Sequence record: PZ386974.1
Source: a phage
Strand: one strand, 5' to 3'
Length of the DNA stretch: 64,000 bases
In this document: piece by piece, positions 10,482 through 29,721 of the stretch
How the letters are laid out: every line of letters begins with the position of its first letter
Numbering within the stretch: the first letter of the stretch is position 1
Made by a program: the position numbers and the translations under genes
Notes under the pieces: model-generated
What the model was told of the DNA's origin: nothing
Database searches by the model: none
The model's input: the letters and a program-made list of their open reading frames with translations, nothing else

Positions 10482-10952
10482 TTAATCATGTTTCCACACC
10501 CCATCGGTATTTGACCAAAGTCGCTGATTATCTGATCCTCGCCACAGCTTTTTAGTCGGAAGATTTTTCTCATACTTCCCATCAATAATAACATCAACAT
10601 ATTTAAGCATTTCTAGTTGTTTAATATCTTCAAACTTATATCCTGTCCACAACCAAATGCTTTTATTGGGATAAAGATTTTTTACTGTTTGAACAATGCG
10701 ATGAATAACATCTCGGTTATCAGGATAGAGAGGGTCTCCTCCGGTTATAGTTAATCCTTCTATATAATCATTATTCAAACATTCAATTAATTGTTCTAGT
10801 GTCTCTCCAGTGAATGGAACACCGTTTCTAGCATTCCATGTTGATTTATTATAACACCCTTCGCATTTATGCAAACAACCTGTGACGAAAAGAACGACCC
10901 TGCAACCAGGGCCATTCACAAAATCGCAAGGATAAAATCTATCATAATTCAT
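10482..10952 (-). CDS. nrdG: Anaerobic ribonucleotide reductase activating protein NrdG (radical SAM)
   Basis: 156 aa; CLHKCEGCYN radical-SAM cysteine motif; immediately downstream of nrdD with an ATGA overlap. Confidence 0.9.
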   Translation of the reverse strand: MNYDRFYPCDFVNGPGCRVVLFVTGCLHKCEGCYNKSTWNARNGVPFTGETLEQLIECLNNDYIEGLTITGGDPLYPDNRDVIHRIVQTVKNLYPNKSIWLWTGYKFEDIKQLEMLKYVDVIIDGKYEKNLPTKKLWRGSDNQRLWSNTDGVWKHD

Positions 10953-12766
10953 TGGTGTTTAACCCTATGCATGATTTCTTTATTTTTGCCTAGATTAAAT
11001 CCGCGTTCGTTCGGGTTTCCAAGATAACCACACGTTCTTCTTATTGTGTTCATCTTTTTAGGATCAGTTTCTCCACAAATAGAACAAACAAATCCGTTTT
11101 CAGTAGGAGTCATTTCATGGGTACTTCCACACGTAAAACATTTATCTACTGGCATATTAACACCAAAATAATCTAAATGTTGTGCAGCATAATCCCAGAC
11201 AGCCTCAAGTCCCTTTAAATTGTTTTTCATATCTGGAAGTTCAACATAAGAAATGTGACCACCTGACGCAATGAAATGATATGGCGCTTCACGAGAAATC
11301 TTTTCAAACGGAGTAATATTTTCTTCTACTGAAACATGGAAACTATTAGTGTACCAGCCTTTATCAGTGACATCCTTTACACTTCCATATTTTTCCGTGT
11401 CGAGTTTACAGAAACGATAACACAAGTTTTCAGCAGGAGTAGAATACAAGCTAAAAGCAAAACCGGTTCTTTCGGTCCACTGTTTAAGATGAGTATTCAT
11501 TTTAGTTAAAATTTCTTGTCCAATATCACGACCGACAAGAATATTCAATTCGTGAATACCAATGTATCCTAGGGACACTGAACTTCTACCGTTTTTAAAT
11601 AACTCAATTATATCGTCATCAGGTTTAAGACGGACCCCGAATGCACCTTCTTGGTAAAGAATAGGAGCAACAGTCGCTTTAACCCCTTTTAAGGAACTAA
11701 TTCTACACATCAAAGCTTCAAAACACAAATCCATTCGTTCATCGAACAATTCGGCAAATTTCTGTTCATTGAACTGTGTTCCAATATAAGAATCTAATGC
11801 GATACGAGGAAGATTCAGTGTTACAACACCGAGATTATTACGTCCATCAAGAATTTCATTACCGGTCGAATCTTTCCATACGCTCAAGAAACTACGGCAA
11901 CCCATTGGAGAAACAGGAACTGAAGAACCGGTAATAGCTTTATTATTCTTAACCGAAATAATATCAGGATACATTCTTTTGCTTGCGCACTCTAGAGCAA
12001 GCTGCTTAATATCATAGTTCGGATCATCTTTATAAAGATTAACACCTTCTTCAACAAACATAACAAGCTTAGGGAAAATAGGAGTTATTCCATCACGACC
12101 AAGACCTTTAATGCGGTTTTTAAGAATTGCCTTCTGAATCATTCGTTCAGTCCAATCGGTTCCCGTACCAAATGTAATTGTTACAAAAGGCGTTTGTCCG
12201 TTTGAACTAAAGAGAGTATTTACTTCATATTCATAAGCTTGGAATGCGTCATAGACATCTTTTTCTGTTTTGGATTGAGCATAATTCAACGCATCAGCGA
12301 TTTGCCATTTTTCTGCATCTTCAATATGTTTTGCATAGGTGCGTTTAACATAAGGAGAAAGTACTTTATCTACATTAGCAAAAGTCGTTCCGCCATACTG
12401 GTGAGAAGCAACTTGTGCGGTAATTTGTGCCATAATTGCAGTAGCAACGCCAATAGATTTAGGCGTTTCAATTTGAGCATTGCCTAATTTAAATCCATTC
12501 TCAAGCATCCCATTTAAATCGACTAAACAGCAATTAGTAAATGGAAGAGCAGGAGAATAATCAATATCATGCATGTGAATGATTCCGCTTTCATGCGCAT
12601 TCATAATAAAAGACGGGACCATATTTTTGGCAATGTGCTTAGACACAATACCAGCCATAAGGTCCCGTTGAGTTGGAAAAACACGAGAATCTTTATTAGC
12701 ATTCTCGTTTAAAAGGTCTTTATTAGTTTTATGAATTAATCCTTCAATTTCTTTTTCAATTTTCAT
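10949..12766 (-). CDS. nrdD: Anaerobic ribonucleoside-triphosphate reductase NrdD (glycyl radical enzyme)
   Basis: 605 aa, the T4 NrdD length; C-terminal zinc-ribbon cysteines (CFTCGS...CSICG) and glycyl-radical region (RTCGYLG). Confidence 0.92.
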   Translation of the reverse strand: MKIEKEIEGLIHKTNKDLLNENANKDSRVFPTQRDLMAGIVSKHIAKNMVPSFIMNAHESGIIHMHDIDYSPALPFTNCCLVDLNGMLENGFKLGNAQIETPKSIGVATAIMAQITAQVASHQYGGTTFANVDKVLSPYVKRTYAKHIEDAEKWQIADALNYAQSKTEKDVYDAFQAYEYEVNTLFSSNGQTPFVTITFGTGTDWTERMIQKAILKNRIKGLGRDGITPIFPKLVMFVEEGVNLYKDDPNYDIKQLALECASKRMYPDIISVKNNKAITGSSVPVSPMGCRSFLSVWKDSTGNEILDGRNNLGVVTLNLPRIALDSYIGTQFNEQKFAELFDERMDLCFEALMCRISSLKGVKATVAPILYQEGAFGVRLKPDDDIIELFKNGRSSVSLGYIGIHELNILVGRDIGQEILTKMNTHLKQWTERTGFAFSLYSTPAENLCYRFCKLDTEKYGSVKDVTDKGWYTNSFHVSVEENITPFEKISREAPYHFIASGGHISYVELPDMKNNLKGLEAVWDYAAQHLDYFGVNMPVDKCFTCGSTHEMTPTENGFVCSICGETDPKKMNTIRRTCGYLGNPNERGFNLGKNKEIMHRVKHQ

Positions 12767-13236
12767 TTTAAACTCTTTCTAAGCTGCTTTTTGAATGAAG
12801 CTATTAATTGTGTTTTAGTGTCAGATTCATTATATTTAAATCCTCTTTGAAGCATCTCAGTCATCATTTCCTCTTTACCTAGTCTTGAGAACTCTTTAGT
12901 TTTGTCTGGAACAAAATTAGGATGGATATTATTATCAGAATAATCTTGTTTCAAATAAGCAAGAAGAGCTTCAAGCCATTCGAGGTAATCAACGTTTTGA
13001 CCTTTAAGACCAGAACGGTTGAACTTATGCTTCATTTGACCTTCTGCTGCGTTGCACAGGTTACATAGTAAACCACGAACCTTACCTGCTTTTGGCCCGT
13101 TTAATTCATGGTCGTGGTCAAGATGGTTACCTTGAACATCAGGGTCTAATTCACGGTGGCAAATAGGACACTTACCGTTCTGTGCATCATAAAATTTTTG
13201 TTTTTCTTCTTTATATTTTGCGCCTGATAATAACAT
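12763..13236 (-). CDS. 49: Endonuclease VII (Holliday junction resolvase) gp49
   Basis: 157 aa; MLLSGAKYKEEKQKFYDAQNGKCPICHREL...HLDHDHELNGP... near-identical to T4 endo VII as recalled. Confidence 0.93.
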   Translation of the reverse strand: MLLSGAKYKEEKQKFYDAQNGKCPICHRELDPDVQGNHLDHDHELNGPKAGKVRGLLCNLCNAAEGQMKHKFNRSGLKGQNVDYLEWLEALLAYLKQDYSDNNIHPNFVPDKTKEFSRLGKEEMMTEMLQRGFKYNESDTKTQLIASFKKQLRKSLK

Positions 13237-25022: not shown

Positions 25023-25513
25023 TTAGGTTCCCAATCAACAATCACAATTTCTAGTTTAGTGGAATACGTATCCAAAATCTCTTCGATGACATCCCAGTTT
25101 CCACCACCAATACCTGCACCAATTCTTGGCATATAAATTACAGGCTTTGTTATCTTATTCTTTCCGAATTCATTTAATTCTATTATACAATTCATTAAAG
25201 CAGAGTACTCAAAATTAGGTCCCGGCTCAAACTGTGTATAAAGATTAAAGCAATAAGCTTTATGGGTCTTAAAATATTTTTCATAAACCGAATAAGTCCC
25301 GAGTTTAGACTCGTCTCCGAATTCGGTTTGAAGTTTATCGGCTTCCAGAATTTTTGGATAAGCCTTTGCTAATTGTCCTGCCACACCCGCGCCCATTGTA
25401 TGAAAACAATTACACCCATGAGCAATATTATTACCTTTAGAAAACAGGGCGACAATATCGCCCTTGATATAGTTTTTAATCACTTGCTGCAAGTCCTCTA
25501 TTATAAGAGTCAA
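25019..25513 (-). CDS. Macrodomain protein (TARG1/DarG-like ADP-ribose binding or hydrolase fold); start codon uncertain (TTG at 25513 or GTG at 25483)
   Basis: YIKGDIVALFSKGNNIAHGCNCFHTMGAGVAGQ and YMPRIGAGIGGGNW align to the TARG1 motifs (IAHCISEDCRMGAGIA and MPRIGCGLDRL) as recalled. Confidence 0.65.
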   Translation of the reverse strand: MTLIIEDLQQVIKNYIKGDIVALFSKGNNIAHGCNCFHTMGAGVAGQLAKAYPKILEADKLQTEFGDESKLGTYSVYEKYFKTHKAYCFNLYTQFEPGPNFEYSALMNCIIELNEFGKNKITKPVIYMPRIGAGIGGGNWDVIEEILDTYSTKLEIVIVDWEPK

Positions 25514-25823
25514 CTAGACGGTCCACCATAGAATTGCATGCTGCCTTATCTTTAGGTTCCGCCACCGAGCATTCTAATATTTGCCATTTTTTATAGTATC
25601 TTTTAATTAAGGTAGACGCCTTGAACCTACTAGACGCCCCATCTTTTTCTCCGTCTTTATACGCATATAACAATTTTTGTGAAAAATCTACTTTACACTC
25701 TTGACTTTTACCACAATAATCAGACGCCGTTCTATTTGTATACTCCGTTACATCAGTATATGTAGTATTAGCAAGAGCGTTAAATGAAACCAAGCCAACT
25801 ATTAAAGCCAACATTTTGGTCAT
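25476..25823 (-). CDS. Hypothetical periplasmic protein with signal peptide (T4 vs-size, 115 aa)
   Basis: MTKMLALIVGLVSFNALA signal peptide; four cysteines. Confidence 0.5.
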   Translation of the reverse strand: MTKMLALIVGLVSFNALANTTYTDVTEYTNRTASDYCGKSQECKVDFSQKLLYAYKDGEKDGASSRFKASTLIKRYYKKWQILECSVAEPKDKAACNSMVDRLVDSYNRGLAASD

Positions 25824-26362
25824 TCTTTTATTTCCAGTAGTTTATTTGATTTAAGGTAATTAGCCTTTTCTAGGACTTCAGAAGCATATTTATTTCCAGC
25901 ACTTGTCTTCCATCCCGCATTATATGAGGATATAGCTTTTCTTATATCCCCGTTATGTATATTTAACCAATAAGAAAATTCGATATAAGCCCATCTGGCT
26001 GAATTAGACCGCTTAGATAGCATTTTCTTAATTTGGGCATCAGTCATATTATAACCAAGCTGGTTAATTCGTGCCCTCATTGTTGGTAGATAATTTTGGA
26101 ACATTCCATACGCATGGTGACCTTTCTTATCTTTAAGATTAATACCAGCAGATGATTCCTGCCATAGTATTGCGGCCATTATGTATCCAAGTCCTTTCTT
26201 ATGCATATTTTCATGCGTTTTAAATTTTCCATCCTTAGAAAACTGTTCCCCAAACTGATAAGCATAATTCAAGTTATCGAGTTGGACATTACTAAAAGTA
26301 TGCTCGGAGCTATGTGCTGATAACGAAAGAGCAAATAGACCAGCGAGTAGTGCTTTTCTCAT
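25820..26362 (-). CDS. Putative secreted lytic transglycosylase (SLT-like domain)
   Basis: Signal peptide MRKALLAGLFALSLSA; WQESSAG...YGMFQ...SYNAG resembles SLT catalytic motifs. Confidence 0.5.
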   Translation of the reverse strand: MRKALLAGLFALSLSAHSSEHTFSNVQLDNLNYAYQFGEQFSKDGKFKTHENMHKKGLGYIMAAILWQESSAGINLKDKKGHHAYGMFQNYLPTMRARINQLGYNMTDAQIKKMLSKRSNSARWAYIEFSYWLNIHNGDIRKAISSYNAGWKTSAGNKYASEVLEKANYLKSNKLLEIKE

Positions 26363-26370
26363 GTTTACCT

Positions 26371-26829
26371 CTAGATTTTAATCACTGCTTTAGAAGCTTT
26401 TCCTGGTAGTCGTTTACTGTTAATAATAGCCATTCTACATTGAAGAGTCTTCATTTTGAATGCCGGATTTTCGCGACAAACTGTAAGTCCTAACCAAAGA
26501 TTTCCATCAGTTATTTCTAAACGGCCTGGGCGGTACTCGACACCTTCGACAAAATCTTCATCAACATCCGGACGTGCCGGCATTGATAAAAATTCTGCAA
26601 CTTCTTTAACGTGATTTTTTACTTTATGAAATAATTCAAAAACGTAATTCTCATCTATTTCTCTCTGGATGGCACGATCTAAGAGATGTTGAGAATACTT
26701 GATATGAAAGCCTGGTAGTCCAAGAGACTTTGCAGCATCTTTTATACCGGCATTTATTTTGCGGAACTCCGTTTCAAAGATTCGACGGAGTTTATTACGG
26801 CGGATAAAAACTTCCGAATTGATAGTCAT
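26371..26829 (-). CDS. regB: Endoribonuclease RegB
   Basis: Track ORF 26371..26853; ATG at 26829 gives MTINSEVFIRRNKLRR...RMAIINSKRLPGKASKAVIK, near-identical to T4 RegB as recalled. Confidence 0.9.
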   Translation of the reverse strand: MTINSEVFIRRNKLRRIFETEFRKINAGIKDAAKSLGLPGFHIKYSQHLLDRAIQREIDENYVFELFHKVKNHVKEVAEFLSMPARPDVDEDFVEGVEYRPGRLEITDGNLWLGLTVCRENPAFKMKTLQCRMAIINSKRLPGKASKAVIKI

Positions 26830-26834
26830 TTTGA

Positions 26835-26885
26835 TTTCTCCTCTAGTTGACAAGTCTATAGTAACACAACTAGAGGAGAAGTAAA
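26835..26885 (-). promoter_or_regulatory. PeSL upstream of regB: GTTTAC -35 and 14 bp inverted repeat TTCTCCTCTAGTTG/CAACTAGAGGAGAA around the -10
   Basis: Right arm contains the GGAG Shine-Dalgarno of regB; coordinates approximate. Confidence 0.5.
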
Positions 26886-27185
26886 CTACTCTTTGAAAGG
26901 AATTAACTTTTTAACTGCTTTAGATACTTCGTCACGAACCTGATGGAAGTTCTTGAGCTGTTCAAGGCGTTGTTCGTAATACGCAATCTCATCTTCTTCA
27001 AGACAATCGTCAGCGTCTTCTTTCAGATATGCCTTGTACTCATTAAAGAGGGCCCATAGGCGGTTCTCAAAGTCATCAAGGCTTTGAATTTTCTTGTGCT
27101 TCGGAACAAGGCCAAAAGGATTGCTTTCAGTTATGCGTCTAGATGCTTCATAATGAGTTCCAAAGCCTGATAGGATTTGAGCCAT
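26886..27185 (-). CDS. Hypothetical protein (T4 vs.x position)
   Basis: 99 aa ORF. Confidence 0.5.
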
Positions 27186-27451
27186 TAGTATTTTTCCTCA
27201 GGTCGAAATACCGCACGACATGCCCACATGCTGGCTTCTTTTAGATGTTGCTTAGCATACTTAAGAGCCTGCACTGCATCCATATCTTCTTTGGTTTGTT
27301 GCTCTGTTTCATTTTCTTTCAAGATATATGCTTCTTCAATCAGAGCATCAAACAACAATCCAAGACGGACTTCTGCATCTTTAATAGCGTTCACTTTACC
27401 GATTTTATCATCGGTATGCGGCTTGTAGCCTTTGATGTCTTCAATCGACAT
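27185..27451 (-). CDS. Hypothetical protein (T4 vs.x position)
   Basis: Track ORF 27185..27619 overlaps the next gene in another frame; internal ATG at 27451 ([10 protein letters not shown]...). Confidence 0.45.
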
Positions 27452-27665
27452 AAGGAATTTCCTCATCGGTGGCAAGGTCATATTCGACCAATTGGATAGG
27501 CTCATTAATACCATATCCACGTACAGTGATATCAGTTGTCGGATAGTTTCCAGTAATATCACCCATTCTAAATGCTTCAGTGAATGATTGCTCGCCTGAG
27601 CAACTAAACCAGGCGGCAAAACATTTTAAAACATCTTCAGACCCTTCTATAATCAATTTAGCCAT
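27441..27665 (-). CDS. Hypothetical acidic protein
   Basis: 74 aa ORF, ATG start. Confidence 0.5.
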   Translation of the reverse strand: MAKLIIEGSEDVLKCFAAWFSCSGEQSFTEAFRMGDITGNYPTTDITVRGYGINEPIQLVEYDLATDEEIPYVD

Positions 27666-28027
27666 TATAGACTCTCAGTAAAGGTGCGAGCGATAACGTC
27701 ACGCTGCTGTTCCGGAGTCAGAGAGTTAAAGCGAACTGCATAACCGGATACACGGATGGTCAACTGCGGATATTTTTCTGGATGCTTAACTGCATCTTCC
27801 AGAGTTTCACGACGCAGAACATTAACGTTCAGGTGTTGACCACCTTCAATTTTAACTTTAGGTTGTTGTTCAATTTCAATTTCACGGGCATTCAAACCGT
27901 AGAAAATTTCCGGGTCTACAATAGCGTCTTCTTTAAAAGTCTTAGAGACAATAATCCTGGCTTGAGTACCGTCTTCAAAATAAATAGTGCCTTTGTGTGT
28001 GCCTTCAAGAATTTGATATGCTTTCAT
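27665..28027 (-). CDS. Autonomous glycyl-radical cofactor (GrcA/YfiD-like; T4 Y06I-type)
   Basis: C-terminal ...[59 protein letters not shown] with the RVSGY glycyl-radical motif. Confidence 0.85.
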
Positions 28028-28033
28028 ATAACC

Positions 28034-28342
28034 TCAATTAGAAAATAAATTTATCCAAGTTTTTTCTTTAATCAAAAATGGGTCGGAATTAAACGCCATT
28101 AAACTTTGAGTGATTAATCCCTTAAATGGCCCATCAATAAATTCCATTTTGAAATGTGGAATACTAGTCATTAACCGTGCATTAGGAGCAGTACAAAAAA
28201 CCTGCTGCCCTGCGAACGGACCTTTAGTCAAACGGTATCGTTTAGGTTTAAAATGGTAAATCTCGTAATTTTCTACAAGGGCCCTTTTATTGCATACTGG
28301 GCTGTTATAACAATGCTCAAAAACTTCAATAGTGGTCATCAT
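28034..28342 (-). CDS. Hypothetical protein
   Basis: Track ORF 28034..28405; ATG at 28342 overlaps the upstream stop (ATGA coupling). Confidence 0.45.
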   Translation of the reverse strand: MMTTIEVFEHCYNSPVCNKRALVENYEIYHFKPKRYRLTKGPFAGQQVFCTAPNARLMTSIPHFKMEFIDGPFKGLITQSLMAFNSDPFLIKEKTWINLFSN

Positions 28343-28878
28343 TGCATTCCAATCACAAAAAATTGAGGACGAGCAATACCACCGATGCAATATTTGCTTT
28401 TGCAACAGTGTTGGACTGTTTTAATATGGATGTCGTAAATCTTATCCATATCAGGAGCTTTAATAGGCTCGTCAATTATGTACAGAATACGAGAAAGCGT
28501 TAATCCACGGAATTTATGTCCTTCATTACCAATAAAACTACGGACAGAATCAGTAAATAAACGGAATCGAATATCATCGCTAGAATATCGAGAAAATTCT
28601 TTTTCAATGTTGCCGGCAGAAATTTTAGCGTAAGCTGAAGTATTAGAAAGAACAATAACTGTTCCGCCATCATACAACCAATTAGCAGCAAAATTAGTCA
28701 CAGCAATTGATTTACCGGATTGTCTGCCGCCGTCTAAACGAAGTGTACAGTACTGCTTGAGTACGTCTTCAAATGGTGGGGCATAACCGTTCTTACAAAT
28801 TTCTTCTACTCTAGCATCAGAATGGTGTGTAAAAGCATTCATCAGGGATAGATAAGGTCCGGTTAAAAATGTTCTCAT
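28339..28878 (-). CDS. Hypothetical P-loop protein
   Basis: 179 aa; GGRQSGKS Walker A-like and LYIIDEP Walker B-like motifs. Confidence 0.5.
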   Translation of the reverse strand: MRTFLTGPYLSLMNAFTHHSDARVEEICKNGYAPPFEDVLKQYCTLRLDGGRQSGKSIAVTNFAANWLYDGGTVIVLSNTSAYAKISAGNIEKEFSRYSSDDIRFRLFTDSVRSFIGNEGHKFRGLTLSRILYIIDEPIKAPDMDKIYDIHIKTVQHCCKSKYCIGGIARPQFFVIGMQ

Positions 28879-29051
28879 TTAGTTTCTCTTAAGGTTGGGG
28901 CCGTTCCGTGGCACATGTTAGGTCCTTCGACTCGCTATGTAAACCCATTACCGCACTTGGGCTCGACCTTATTACAGGTTGGAAAAGGTACATCACTCAG
29001 AGGACTCGACGTTCATGAGGAGAGGTTGCGTTTCCCTTTATTAGGCAAGAA
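28879..29051. other. GC-rich non-coding island with repeated (G)CTCGAC motifs
   Basis: About 170 nt with no convincing ORF, visibly more GC-rich than flanking DNA; motifs gggctcgacc, ggactcgacg, tcgactcgc. Confidence 0.4.
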
Positions 29052-29381
29052 TTATACTCTAGGCTTTTGAGCTTGTTTGGTATTGGATTCCCATGCAGCT
29101 TTGGTAATTTTGTTAGCGGCATAACCAAAGGCATTAGATAGAACACCTTTAGAGTTGAATACATCCAATCCAATAAGTACACCGGCTGTGTTAAATTTAG
29201 GAGCAAAGTACGCATTAGTTTTAGAAAGAGCTTTTTTCAATTCAGGGTCTTGAACCAAACCATCAAAAACGCCTTTACTATTTACTTTATATGTTACTTT
29301 GGGATTTTTACCTTCTTCGATAGCAGCTTTCTGTTCCGCAGATAATGTAACTTCAGTGATAAACTCTTGATACGTTTTCAT
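29052..29381 (-). CDS. Internal-protein-like protein with capsid targeting sequence (MKTYQEFITE)
   Basis: N-terminal decapeptide matches the T4 IP capsid-targeting consensus MKTYQEFIAE; 109 aa, basic. Confidence 0.6.
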   Translation of the reverse strand: MKTYQEFITEVTLSAEQKAAIEEGKNPKVTYKVNSKGVFDGLVQDPELKKALSKTNAYFAPKFNTAGVLIGLDVFNSKGVLSNAFGYAANKITKAAWESNTKQAQKPRV

Positions 29382-29406
29382 TTTGTTCCTATTGTTTTAA
29401 TTTATG

Positions 29407-29721
29407 TTATTCTTTAGGGAAGTTTTTAGAGTATGCATCATAAAGTTTATTACCGATGCGACGGAAGACTTTAGCTGCAAAACGGTTTTCAGGGTTTTTA
29501 ATCATGATTTGCATCATGTAAGTTCCTGCATCCGAAAGAGCTTCTTCATAGTACCCATTAATTTCTTTAAGGGTCCTACGTTTACCACCAGGACCATCAA
29601 CAGTAATTTTCCATTTACCTGTAGAAGTGCGGCTCGGTGGCTCAACTTGTTCAATCCAAATATAACCACCTTCAACGCGTTGGTTGGCGGATTCTGCAAT
29701 AAATTCTTTATACGTTTTCAT
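29407..29721 (-). CDS. Internal-protein-like protein with capsid targeting sequence (MKTYKEFIAE)
   Basis: N-terminal CTS; 104 aa. Confidence 0.6.
   Translation of the reverse strand: MKTYKEFIAESANQRVEGGYIWIEQVEPPSRTSTGKWKITVDGPGGKRRTLKEINGYYEEALSDAGTYMMQIMIKNPENRFAAKVFRRIGNKLYDAYSKNFPKE

Follow-up and report, generated by a model that had tools for sequence, protein, structure and literature searches.

To our knowledge, biochemical validation as a spare part for a glycyl-radical enzyme has been obtained for just two proteins, one of which is the Vs.6 protein (Y06I) of phage T4. T4 Y06I is reported to be activated by the activase of pyruvate formate-lyase (PFL), PFL-AE, and to restore PFL that has been cleaved by oxygen, and Escherichia coli GrcA (YfiD) is reported to act likewise, with the radical installed by the PFL activase and the activity of the cleaved PFL restored (PMC8683613, citing Wagner 2001 for the T4 protein). 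Residues 1-60 of YfiD are disordered and needed for binding of cleaved PFL and for efficient activation, residues 61-127 are structured, and the structured domain replaces PFL residues ~693-759 (PMC8683613). Exchange between phage and host alleles has been described in cyanophages, whose host-like metabolic genes psbA and psbD have recombined with host copies within the gene (Sullivan et al. 2006, PMC1484495). Here we analyzed the vs.6 orthologue in a 64,000-nucleotide stretch of phage DNA (record PZ386974.1; hereafter the window, meaning the whole stretch), whose source is an RB69-like Mosigvirus. This gene is very probably a mosaic, with old phage sequence in codons 1-60 and in the final three codons and a copy of E. 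coli grcA sequence in codons 61-117.

The window gene resembles T4 vs.6 in length, in neighborhood, and in having a phage-type N-terminal half (N-half) followed by an E. coli-type tract, and the two proteins are 95% identical over their full length (114 of 120 residues). The initial annotation, made from the sequence alone, had stated that T4 encodes such a protein able to repair oxygen-cleaved PFL, and the literature agrees. The window gene differs from that of T4 in 18 nucleotides and 6 amino acids of the N-half, in its terminal codons (GAG AGT CTA instead of GAA AGT TTG), and in its tract, which carries five changes from E. coli where that of T4 carries none. With E. coli GrcA it shares the C-terminal 60 residues, including the RVSGYAV motif, and 171 nucleotides that are 97% identical, but the N-half of GrcA is 7 residues longer and the window gene lacks the host regulatory context. 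Like psbA and psbD, vs.6 is a host-type gene of lytic T4-like phages that replaces a damage-prone component and swaps patches with host alleles. Unlike them, it codes for a compact module that repairs a glycyl-radical enzyme, exchange is limited to one domain with nearly fixed edges, and the recipients are T-even phages that contain hydroxymethylcytosine (hmC) and degrade host DNA; the tract is 100% host-identical in T4 and in the contigs L096 and L098. The Gly_radical match of vs.6 was noted previously (Nolan 2006). The DNA-level mosaic is apparently unreported but exemplifies a type of process that is already known.

Host-type DNA in the second half of vs.6

The window gene was aligned codon by codon with E. 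coli grcA (locus L001, positions 447-830). Residues 61-120 of Vs.6 were identical to residues 68-127 of GrcA at 60 of 60 positions, which bears out the residue-for-residue match proposed in the initial annotation. The N-half is divergent, as also proposed there, with 35% amino acid identity to the YfiD N-half over 40 residues (E=3e-6, from a single comparison). At the DNA level, the final 183 nucleotides of vs.6 differed from grcA at 8 positions, every one synonymous (95.6% identity), and 52 of the 60 codons were the same. Third-position identity to E. coli was 0.88 in this half (C-half) versus 0.38 in the N-terminal block, where overall nucleotide identity was 49.6% and the same codon was used at 7 of the 14 conserved residues. 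When the window was searched in three pieces by megablast against 5,426 complete E. coli genomes, one match was obtained, the vs.6 tract, and it was present in every genome at 95.6% identity or lower; thus, no E. coli allele among these genomes matched the window's five tract changes better than 95.6%.

The number of synonymous differences was then set against two expectations. In simulations of the same 60-residue peptide with codons drawn independently (20,000 draws), the sequences differed from E. coli at a mean of 40 positions under phage codon usage and of 31 under that of enterobacterial grcA; the lowest count in any draw was 15, so 8 or fewer never occurred. Among 46 sequences encoding the identical 60-mer, differences from E. 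coli per 180 nucleotides amounted to 12-28 in non-Escherichia bacteria, 31 in the Slopekvirus-like phage contigs L106-L108, and 2-8 in T4/RB69-type phages (2 in T4 and 8 in the window). The initial annotation had proposed synonymous divergence as the means of separating constraint from transfer. The synonymous divergence (dS) between the window C-half and E. coli was 0.20, compared with 0.36-1.0 between the C-halves of E. coli and other enterobacteria, a result that favors recombination, and the nonsynonymous divergence (dN) of the C-half was ~0 throughout. The nearest host to the window tract was E. coli (5/171 differences), with Citrobacter and others at 18 or more, and the tract carried E. 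coli-specific synonymous states, not those of Citrobacter or Salmonella. In T4, 174 of 174 nucleotides were identical to E. coli grcA. Because the synonymous differences are far below those in the simulations, in same-peptide genes, and in the N-terminal block of the same gene, these sequence comparisons indicate that the host-identical end reflects shared DNA ancestry. The initial annotation had offered recombination or constraint; both hold, since L106-L108 keep the same 60 residues with 31 synonymous differences, but it is recombination that explains the DNA.

The maximum chi-square breakpoint lay after nucleotide 178, with an identity of 0.39 before and 0.96 after it (chi-square, 132), and the 5' edge of the tract was placed at codon 60/61, between AAA ATT and GAA GGT GGT. 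The 3' edge lay at codons 117/118. The terminal codons GAG AGT CTA were found in every RB69-type copy and also in phT4A, a distant Slopekvirus, whereas E. coli has GAA AGC CTG, and the tract is therefore codons 61-117. Codon usage shifted at the 5' edge, from AGG, CTT, TTG, CAA, and ATT in the N-half to CTG, CGT, and AAC in the tract, and the GC content at third codon positions (GC3) was 0.27 in the N-half versus 0.38 in the C-half of the window copy and 0.18 versus 0.42 in T4. The tract, which encodes the glycyl-radical domain, almost exactly covers the structured half of YfiD, and the phage-type N-half, which is 7 residues shorter than that of YfiD, corresponds to the disordered region 1-60/67. 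The same phage-type N-half (MKAYQILEG...) was also found in Klebsiella, Enterobacter, and more distant phages without E. coli-like tracts, and it is therefore older than the tract. The 3' edge may be set by selection on coupling to the downstream gene vs.5, to which vs.6 is predicted from their overlap to be translationally coupled, together with the loss of homology past the stop codon.

As to direction, both halves of E. coli grcA show ordinary divergence from the other enterobacteria, with a dS in the N-half of 0.6-1.1 beside the C-half range given above. Its C-half distances follow taxonomy (2 nucleotides to Escherichia sp., 13 to Citrobacter, and more to Salmonella), and the tract is compositionally foreign within the phage gene. 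The normal divergence of E. coli grcA indicates that the host, E. coli, was the donor and the phage the recipient.

The number of tract differences from E. coli, out of 171 nucleotides, was 0 in T4, L096 (Mosigvirus-type), and L098 (Tequatrovirus-type), 2 in RB69, and 5 in the window. The five changes of the window lie at codons 69, 83, 89, 109, and 114 (positions 27821, 27779, 27763, 27701, and 27686); all are synonymous, four of the five are GC to AT, and four of the five are common to its closest relative, phage TH12. The window holds one of the more decayed tract copies, and the "recent" in the recombination proposed by the initial annotation needs qualification. Among 15 Tequatrovirus and Mosigvirus copies of vs.6, the N-halves of the two genera differed at 18-21 of 180 nucleotides, while there were no fixed tract differences; the tract variants were private or scattered, radiating from the E. 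coli sequence, and copies identical to the E. coli tract were present in both genera. Between the window and T4, DNA identity was ~72-78% in the flanks and 96-97% in the tract. Fisher tests of tract versus N-half gave p=0.0005 for RB69 and T4 and p=0.03 for the window and T4. Because N-halves and flanks have diverged and the tract has no fixed differences, the tract is much younger than the split between Tequatrovirus and Mosigvirus.

Host-like tracts in other phages

The Klebsiella phage phiKp_22 (Jiaodavirus) and the IMG/VR contig L121 (IMGVR_UViG_2974754850_000001) differed at only 3 of 100 upstream positions and 6 of 180 N-half positions, and they share the phage-type terminal codons ACT TTC ACA GAG GCA CTA. 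Their tracts, however, differed at 14 of 171 positions. The phiKp_22 tract was separated by one change over codons 64-114 from the host-type allele L176, whose locus shares 94% identity with one from a Raoultella genome, and the L121 tract by two changes over codons 62-113 from the host alleles L175/L177, whose loci are closest to a Klebsiella locus. These host alleles are full-length, syntenic loci. In codons 61-113, informative sites supported the grouping of phiKp_22 with L176 and of L121 with L175 by 12:0, whereas in codons 114-120 the count was 0:7, with phiKp_22 and L121 together. A further comparison gave 20:0 for the window with E. coli and phiKp_22 with L176, so that the tracts group with their own hosts. 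No close donor for the Klebsiella phages was found among 80 GTDB representative loci (the nearest differed at 12/171), and the metagenome scan gave closer ones (5-6/171). Two variable residues behave in the same way: E. coli has E77/K81, the Klebsiella group has L/E or M/E at these positions, and the phages track their hosts. Because two sister Klebsiella phages carry tracts of two different host alleles, these results indicate that host-to-phage conversion is recurrent in T4-like phages, each time from the allele of the local host.

In the E. coli phages, host states appeared in patches in the terminal three codons: GAA in T4; AGC in p000v, L100, and YwIITB1; and CTG in L098. Four phage variants, 73T>C (in RB69, UGJNEcP2, phi25-307, and L099), 94C>A (in LNA2 and L100), 75T>G (in YwIITB1), and 65C>T (in p000v and L095), also segregate in metagenomic host-type E. 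coli alleles (L205, L196, L198/L247, and L194). These four shared variants compare with ~2 expected by chance on a rough estimate, so the overlap was not relied on, and the commonest host variant, 68T>A, was found in none of the 15 phages compared. The patchy terminal codons and the shared variants point to several events and donors, which is suggestive but not conclusive.

Tract identity to E. coli across 50,697 phage records was bimodal, with 414 records at 99% or higher and 229 at 95-99%; 2 records fell at 90-95%, and all others lay at 88% or lower. T5-like, Krischvirus, Karamvirus, Aeromonas, and jumbo phages lacked host-like DNA and were 30-58 differences away from every host sampled. The GrcA-like genes of T5-like (Demerecviridae), Krischvirus, and Aeromonas phages have the same architecture as vs.6 and the same domain (GGQHLNVNV...RVSGYAVRF) but 4-18 amino-acid-changing codons and, per 180 nucleotides, 35-58 differences from every sampled host, and they represent the unconverted state. 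In the T5-like phages FFH1 and S147 (L011 and L012), the GrcA-like gene lies just downstream of the genes for tRNA-Met and tRNA-Ile, and its domain shows 12 amino-acid-changing codons and no host-like DNA.

Two further observations concern individual contigs. The IMG/VR contigs L106-L108, whose N-half is Slopekvirus-like, have the E. coli-type C-terminus E77/K81, with their 31 synonymous differences and no close sampled host, whereas L77/E81, the Klebsiella type, is found in their relatives phT4A, KpCCP1, and L111; the C-terminus of L106-L108 could be an old, decayed conversion or a convergence. In L121, a one-base deletion relative to phiKp_22 at about locus position 520 cuts vs.6 to an 80-codon open reading frame (ORF), and either this is a sequencing error or L121 carries a pseudogene with a nonetheless recently converted tract. 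The IMG/VR loci L123 and L164-L173 were also considered as phages with host-like tracts and were rejected: they are bacterial grcA or pflB genes, with a host-type MITGIQ N-terminus (Yersinia-like) or pflB C-termini, and are probably prophage flanks or misclassified bacterial DNA in a viral collection.

Alternative explanations

Several other histories could in principle leave such a gene. If protein-level constraint acted alone, the identity would come from the fit to host PFL and its activase, and the DNA likeness would be a by-product of the peptide and of codon preference. Constraint is very strong here, as the 60 residues kept by L106-L108 and many enterobacteria and the near-zero dN of the C-half attest, but those same-peptide sequences differ at 12-31 synonymous sites against 8 in the window and 2 in T4, no simulation under either codon usage fell below 15, the N-half of the same gene has phage-type codons (AGG, CTT, CAA) and the lower GC3, and the phage matches E. 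coli-specific synonymous states; we regard this explanation as very improbable. Slightly less credible still is that the whole gene was captured from E. coli and its N-half then diverged very rapidly. The homology of the two N-halves and the disorder of this region in YfiD, which could let it evolve fast (PMC8683613), speak for it, but selection cannot accelerate synonymous sites, the third-position contrast and the breakpoint are sharp, and the phage-type N-half predates the tract, being present in phages without E. coli-like tracts. We give next to no credence to the reverse transfer, in which phage DNA would have overwritten part of E. coli grcA; identity alone gives no direction and nothing specific favors this one, whereas the E. 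coli C-half is no outlier among enterobacteria (the dS range cited above covers Citrobacter, Salmonella, Enterobacter, and Klebsiella), the tract is in all 5,426 E. coli genomes, its composition differs from that of the rest of the phage gene, and each of the Klebsiella phages has its match in a host allele that is full-length and syntenic. Contamination with host DNA or chimeric assembly deserves equally little credence, because the tract lies in frame between phage-specific codons, recurs in 643 phage genomes that were sequenced independently, T4 and RB69 among them, and carries lineage-specific mutations shared with the nearest relative, TH12.

A more serious, though still unlikely, alternative is a single host-to-phage capture in one E. 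coli T-even lineage, with the tract then passed between Tequatrovirus and Mosigvirus in co-infections, which would make the host event rare rather than ongoing. Both genera share the 5' edge at codon 60/61, tract variants at codons 66, 73, 94, 110, and 117 are common to both, and T-even phages recombine intensely in co-infection. Exchange between phages should, however, have homogenized the N-half too, where 18-21 differences remain. The patchy host states in the last three codons of different phages and, suggestively only, the four tract variants that also segregate in E. coli alleles argue for more than one event, and the Klebsiella phages prove that independent host-to-phage events occur.

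Some points weigh against the reading of vs.6 as a repeatedly converted spare-part gene. For the E. coli phages themselves, independent events in each genus are indistinguishable from one capture followed by tract transfer between phages. When the last three codons are included, the comparison of N-half with full C-half between the window and T4 is not significant (p=0.20). The species of the donors L175 and L176 are assigned from their similarity to GTDB loci and may be other than they appear. On the NCBIfam GrcA model TIGR04365, the window protein scored 158.8 bits, below the 170-bit equivalog cutoff, while E. coli GrcA scored 233.9 bits; the shortfall is due to the diverged N-half, and the match spans residues 18-120. 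The spare-part role of the window protein would follow by orthology with the T4 and E. coli proteins, and we infer the link between formate and NrdD discussed below and any selective benefit of host matching. In the literature, no paper was found to describe gene conversion between vs.6 and grcA or their identity at the nucleotide level, but Wagner 2001 might already note the identity.

Gene context, possible mechanism, and significance

The window gene is the Mosigvirus orthologue of T4 vs.6 (Y06I), and both gene and function are already known. Its DNA is 99.2% identical to that of phage TH12, 96.4% to RB69 vs.6, which is labeled "autonomous glycyl radical cofactor GrcA" in RefSeq, and ~92-93% to the Tequatrovirus copies. 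The protein matched Pfam Gly_radical (E=1.9e-18) and the YfiD structure in PDB 6owr (E=1.6e-42), and its residues 58-120 align to PFL 697-759. Gly95 (27743-27745) is the counterpart of YfiD Gly102 and PFL Gly734. By these comparisons, Vs.6 is homologous to GrcA over its full length and yet forms a distinct phage subfamily. Homologues occur in ~1,590 of the 50,697 phage records, which comprise T4-like phages that infect enterobacteria or Aeromonas, phages of the T5 type, and some jumbo phages. Window positions 25026-28982 are collinear with T4, and the gene order vs.8-vs.7-vs.6-vs.5-vs.4-regB is common to the window, RB69, and T4, which places vs.6 between vs.7 and vs.5 in the vs-regB-denV early region. 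The flanking ORFs are unrelated small phage genes, and Vs.6 stands alone, without the catalytic ten-stranded barrel, as is typical of the GrcA/YfiD cofactors (TIGR04365, IPR011140), which are small proteins of ~14 kDa. The Shine-Dalgarno sequence of vs.6 overlaps the TGA stop of the upstream vs.7 ORF, and its TAA stop and the ATG of vs.5 overlap by one base at 27665 (TAATG). Promoter and terminator counts from a scan of 26800-29600 were not above those in shuffled sequence. The features are collected in Table 1.

Table 1. Coordinates of vs.6, its segments, and the nrd genes in the window
Feature	Position	Strand	Basis
vs.6/Y06I orthologue, GrcA-like glycyl-radical "spare part" protein, 120 amino acids, intact from ATG to TAA	27665..28027	minus	ORF, Pfam, and homology
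Shine-Dalgarno sequence of vs.6, GAGG	28032..28035	minus	direct reading; 4 nucleotides upstream of ATG
Phage-type N-terminal half, codons 1-60	27848..28027	minus	divergence from host grcA, codon usage
Probable host-derived gene-conversion tract, codons 61-117, 171 nucleotides	27677..27847	minus	identity to E. coli grcA, breakpoint
RVSGYAV glycyl-radical motif, codons 92-98	27734..27754	minus	translation read directly
Phage-type last three codons GAG AGT CTA and TAA stop, 3' edge of tract	27665..27676	minus	comparison with phT4A and RB69-type copies
nrdG, radical S-adenosylmethionine activase	10482-10952	minus	
nrdD, anaerobic ribonucleotide reductase that carries a Gly_radical domain of its own	10949-12766	minus	

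Two neighboring regions showed features of their own. Two genes downstream of vs.6, at the vs.4 position, the minus-strand ORF 27185-27619 matched the Pfam Acb2/Tad1 hairpin domain (E=1.4e-17), a family that we take to comprise phage nucleotide sponges acting against cyclic oligonucleotide-based antiphage signaling (CBASS) and Thoeris defenses; the real start of this ORF is probably internal to the listed 144-residue frame. On the other side, a second locally conserved island near vs.6 was found at 28623-28892 (minus strand), within the vs.8-like ORF 28339-28878, where identity to T4 is 89-98% in surroundings of ~72-78%. This island had no E. coli match, and the vs.8-like ORF had no Pfam match.

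The nrdG and nrdD genes lie ~15 kb from vs.6, with the endonuclease VII gene next (12763-13236), and they showed no megablast-level similarity to E. coli DNA, unlike vs.6. In the Aeromonas phage Ah1 (L013, 301-684), the vs.6 homologue is flanked on one side by nrdG, whose end it overlaps, and on the other by nrdC/nrdH, and phage phiAS5 (hit H109) is arranged likewise. This arrangement hints at a functional link between the spare part and anaerobic nucleotide reduction.

During infection, oxygen would cleave activated host PFL at Gly734, and phage Vs.6 would bind the cleaved enzyme, its C-terminal domain (residues 61-120) replacing PFL residues ~700-759 and supplying the missing strand, radical loop, and helix. 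The host PFL activase would then install the radical on Gly95, and production of acetyl-CoA and formate would resume. Restored PFL could sustain the fermentative energy supply (acetyl-CoA and ATP) during infection. Class III ribonucleotide reductase uses formate as its reductant, and formate would thus serve the phage enzyme encoded by nrdD and nrdG in the same window.

At the DNA level, homologous recombination of the gene-conversion type with fragments of host grcA would replace the domain-coding segment. Crossovers would require similar DNA, which is maintained only under extreme protein conservation, and this would confine the tract to the domain; an identical tract would ease further conversions ("refreshing"), leading to concerted evolution with the host gene. 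We put forward tentatively, as quite possible though short of probable, that vs.6 of T-even phages is in concerted evolution with host grcA, the domain-coding ~170 nucleotides being repeatedly overwritten while the N-half and the 3' coupling signals are kept.

The vs.6 tract offers a clean, small example of gene conversion from host to phage that lends itself to experiment, in phages regarded as well shielded from host DNA by hmC modification and host-DNA degradation. The mosaic also flags the structured domain as the part of the protein that must match the host, and the N-half, which would bind cleaved PFL, as the part that the phage retains for itself. If concerted evolution with grcA is true, each phage lineage would carry the glycyl-radical domain of the bacterium that it currently infects, whether E. 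coli, Klebsiella, or Raoultella. If the conversions are selected, and not a neutral by-product of homology, a strictly lytic phage that degrades host DNA would be using the host genome as a template by which one of its auxiliary genes stays matched to the host.

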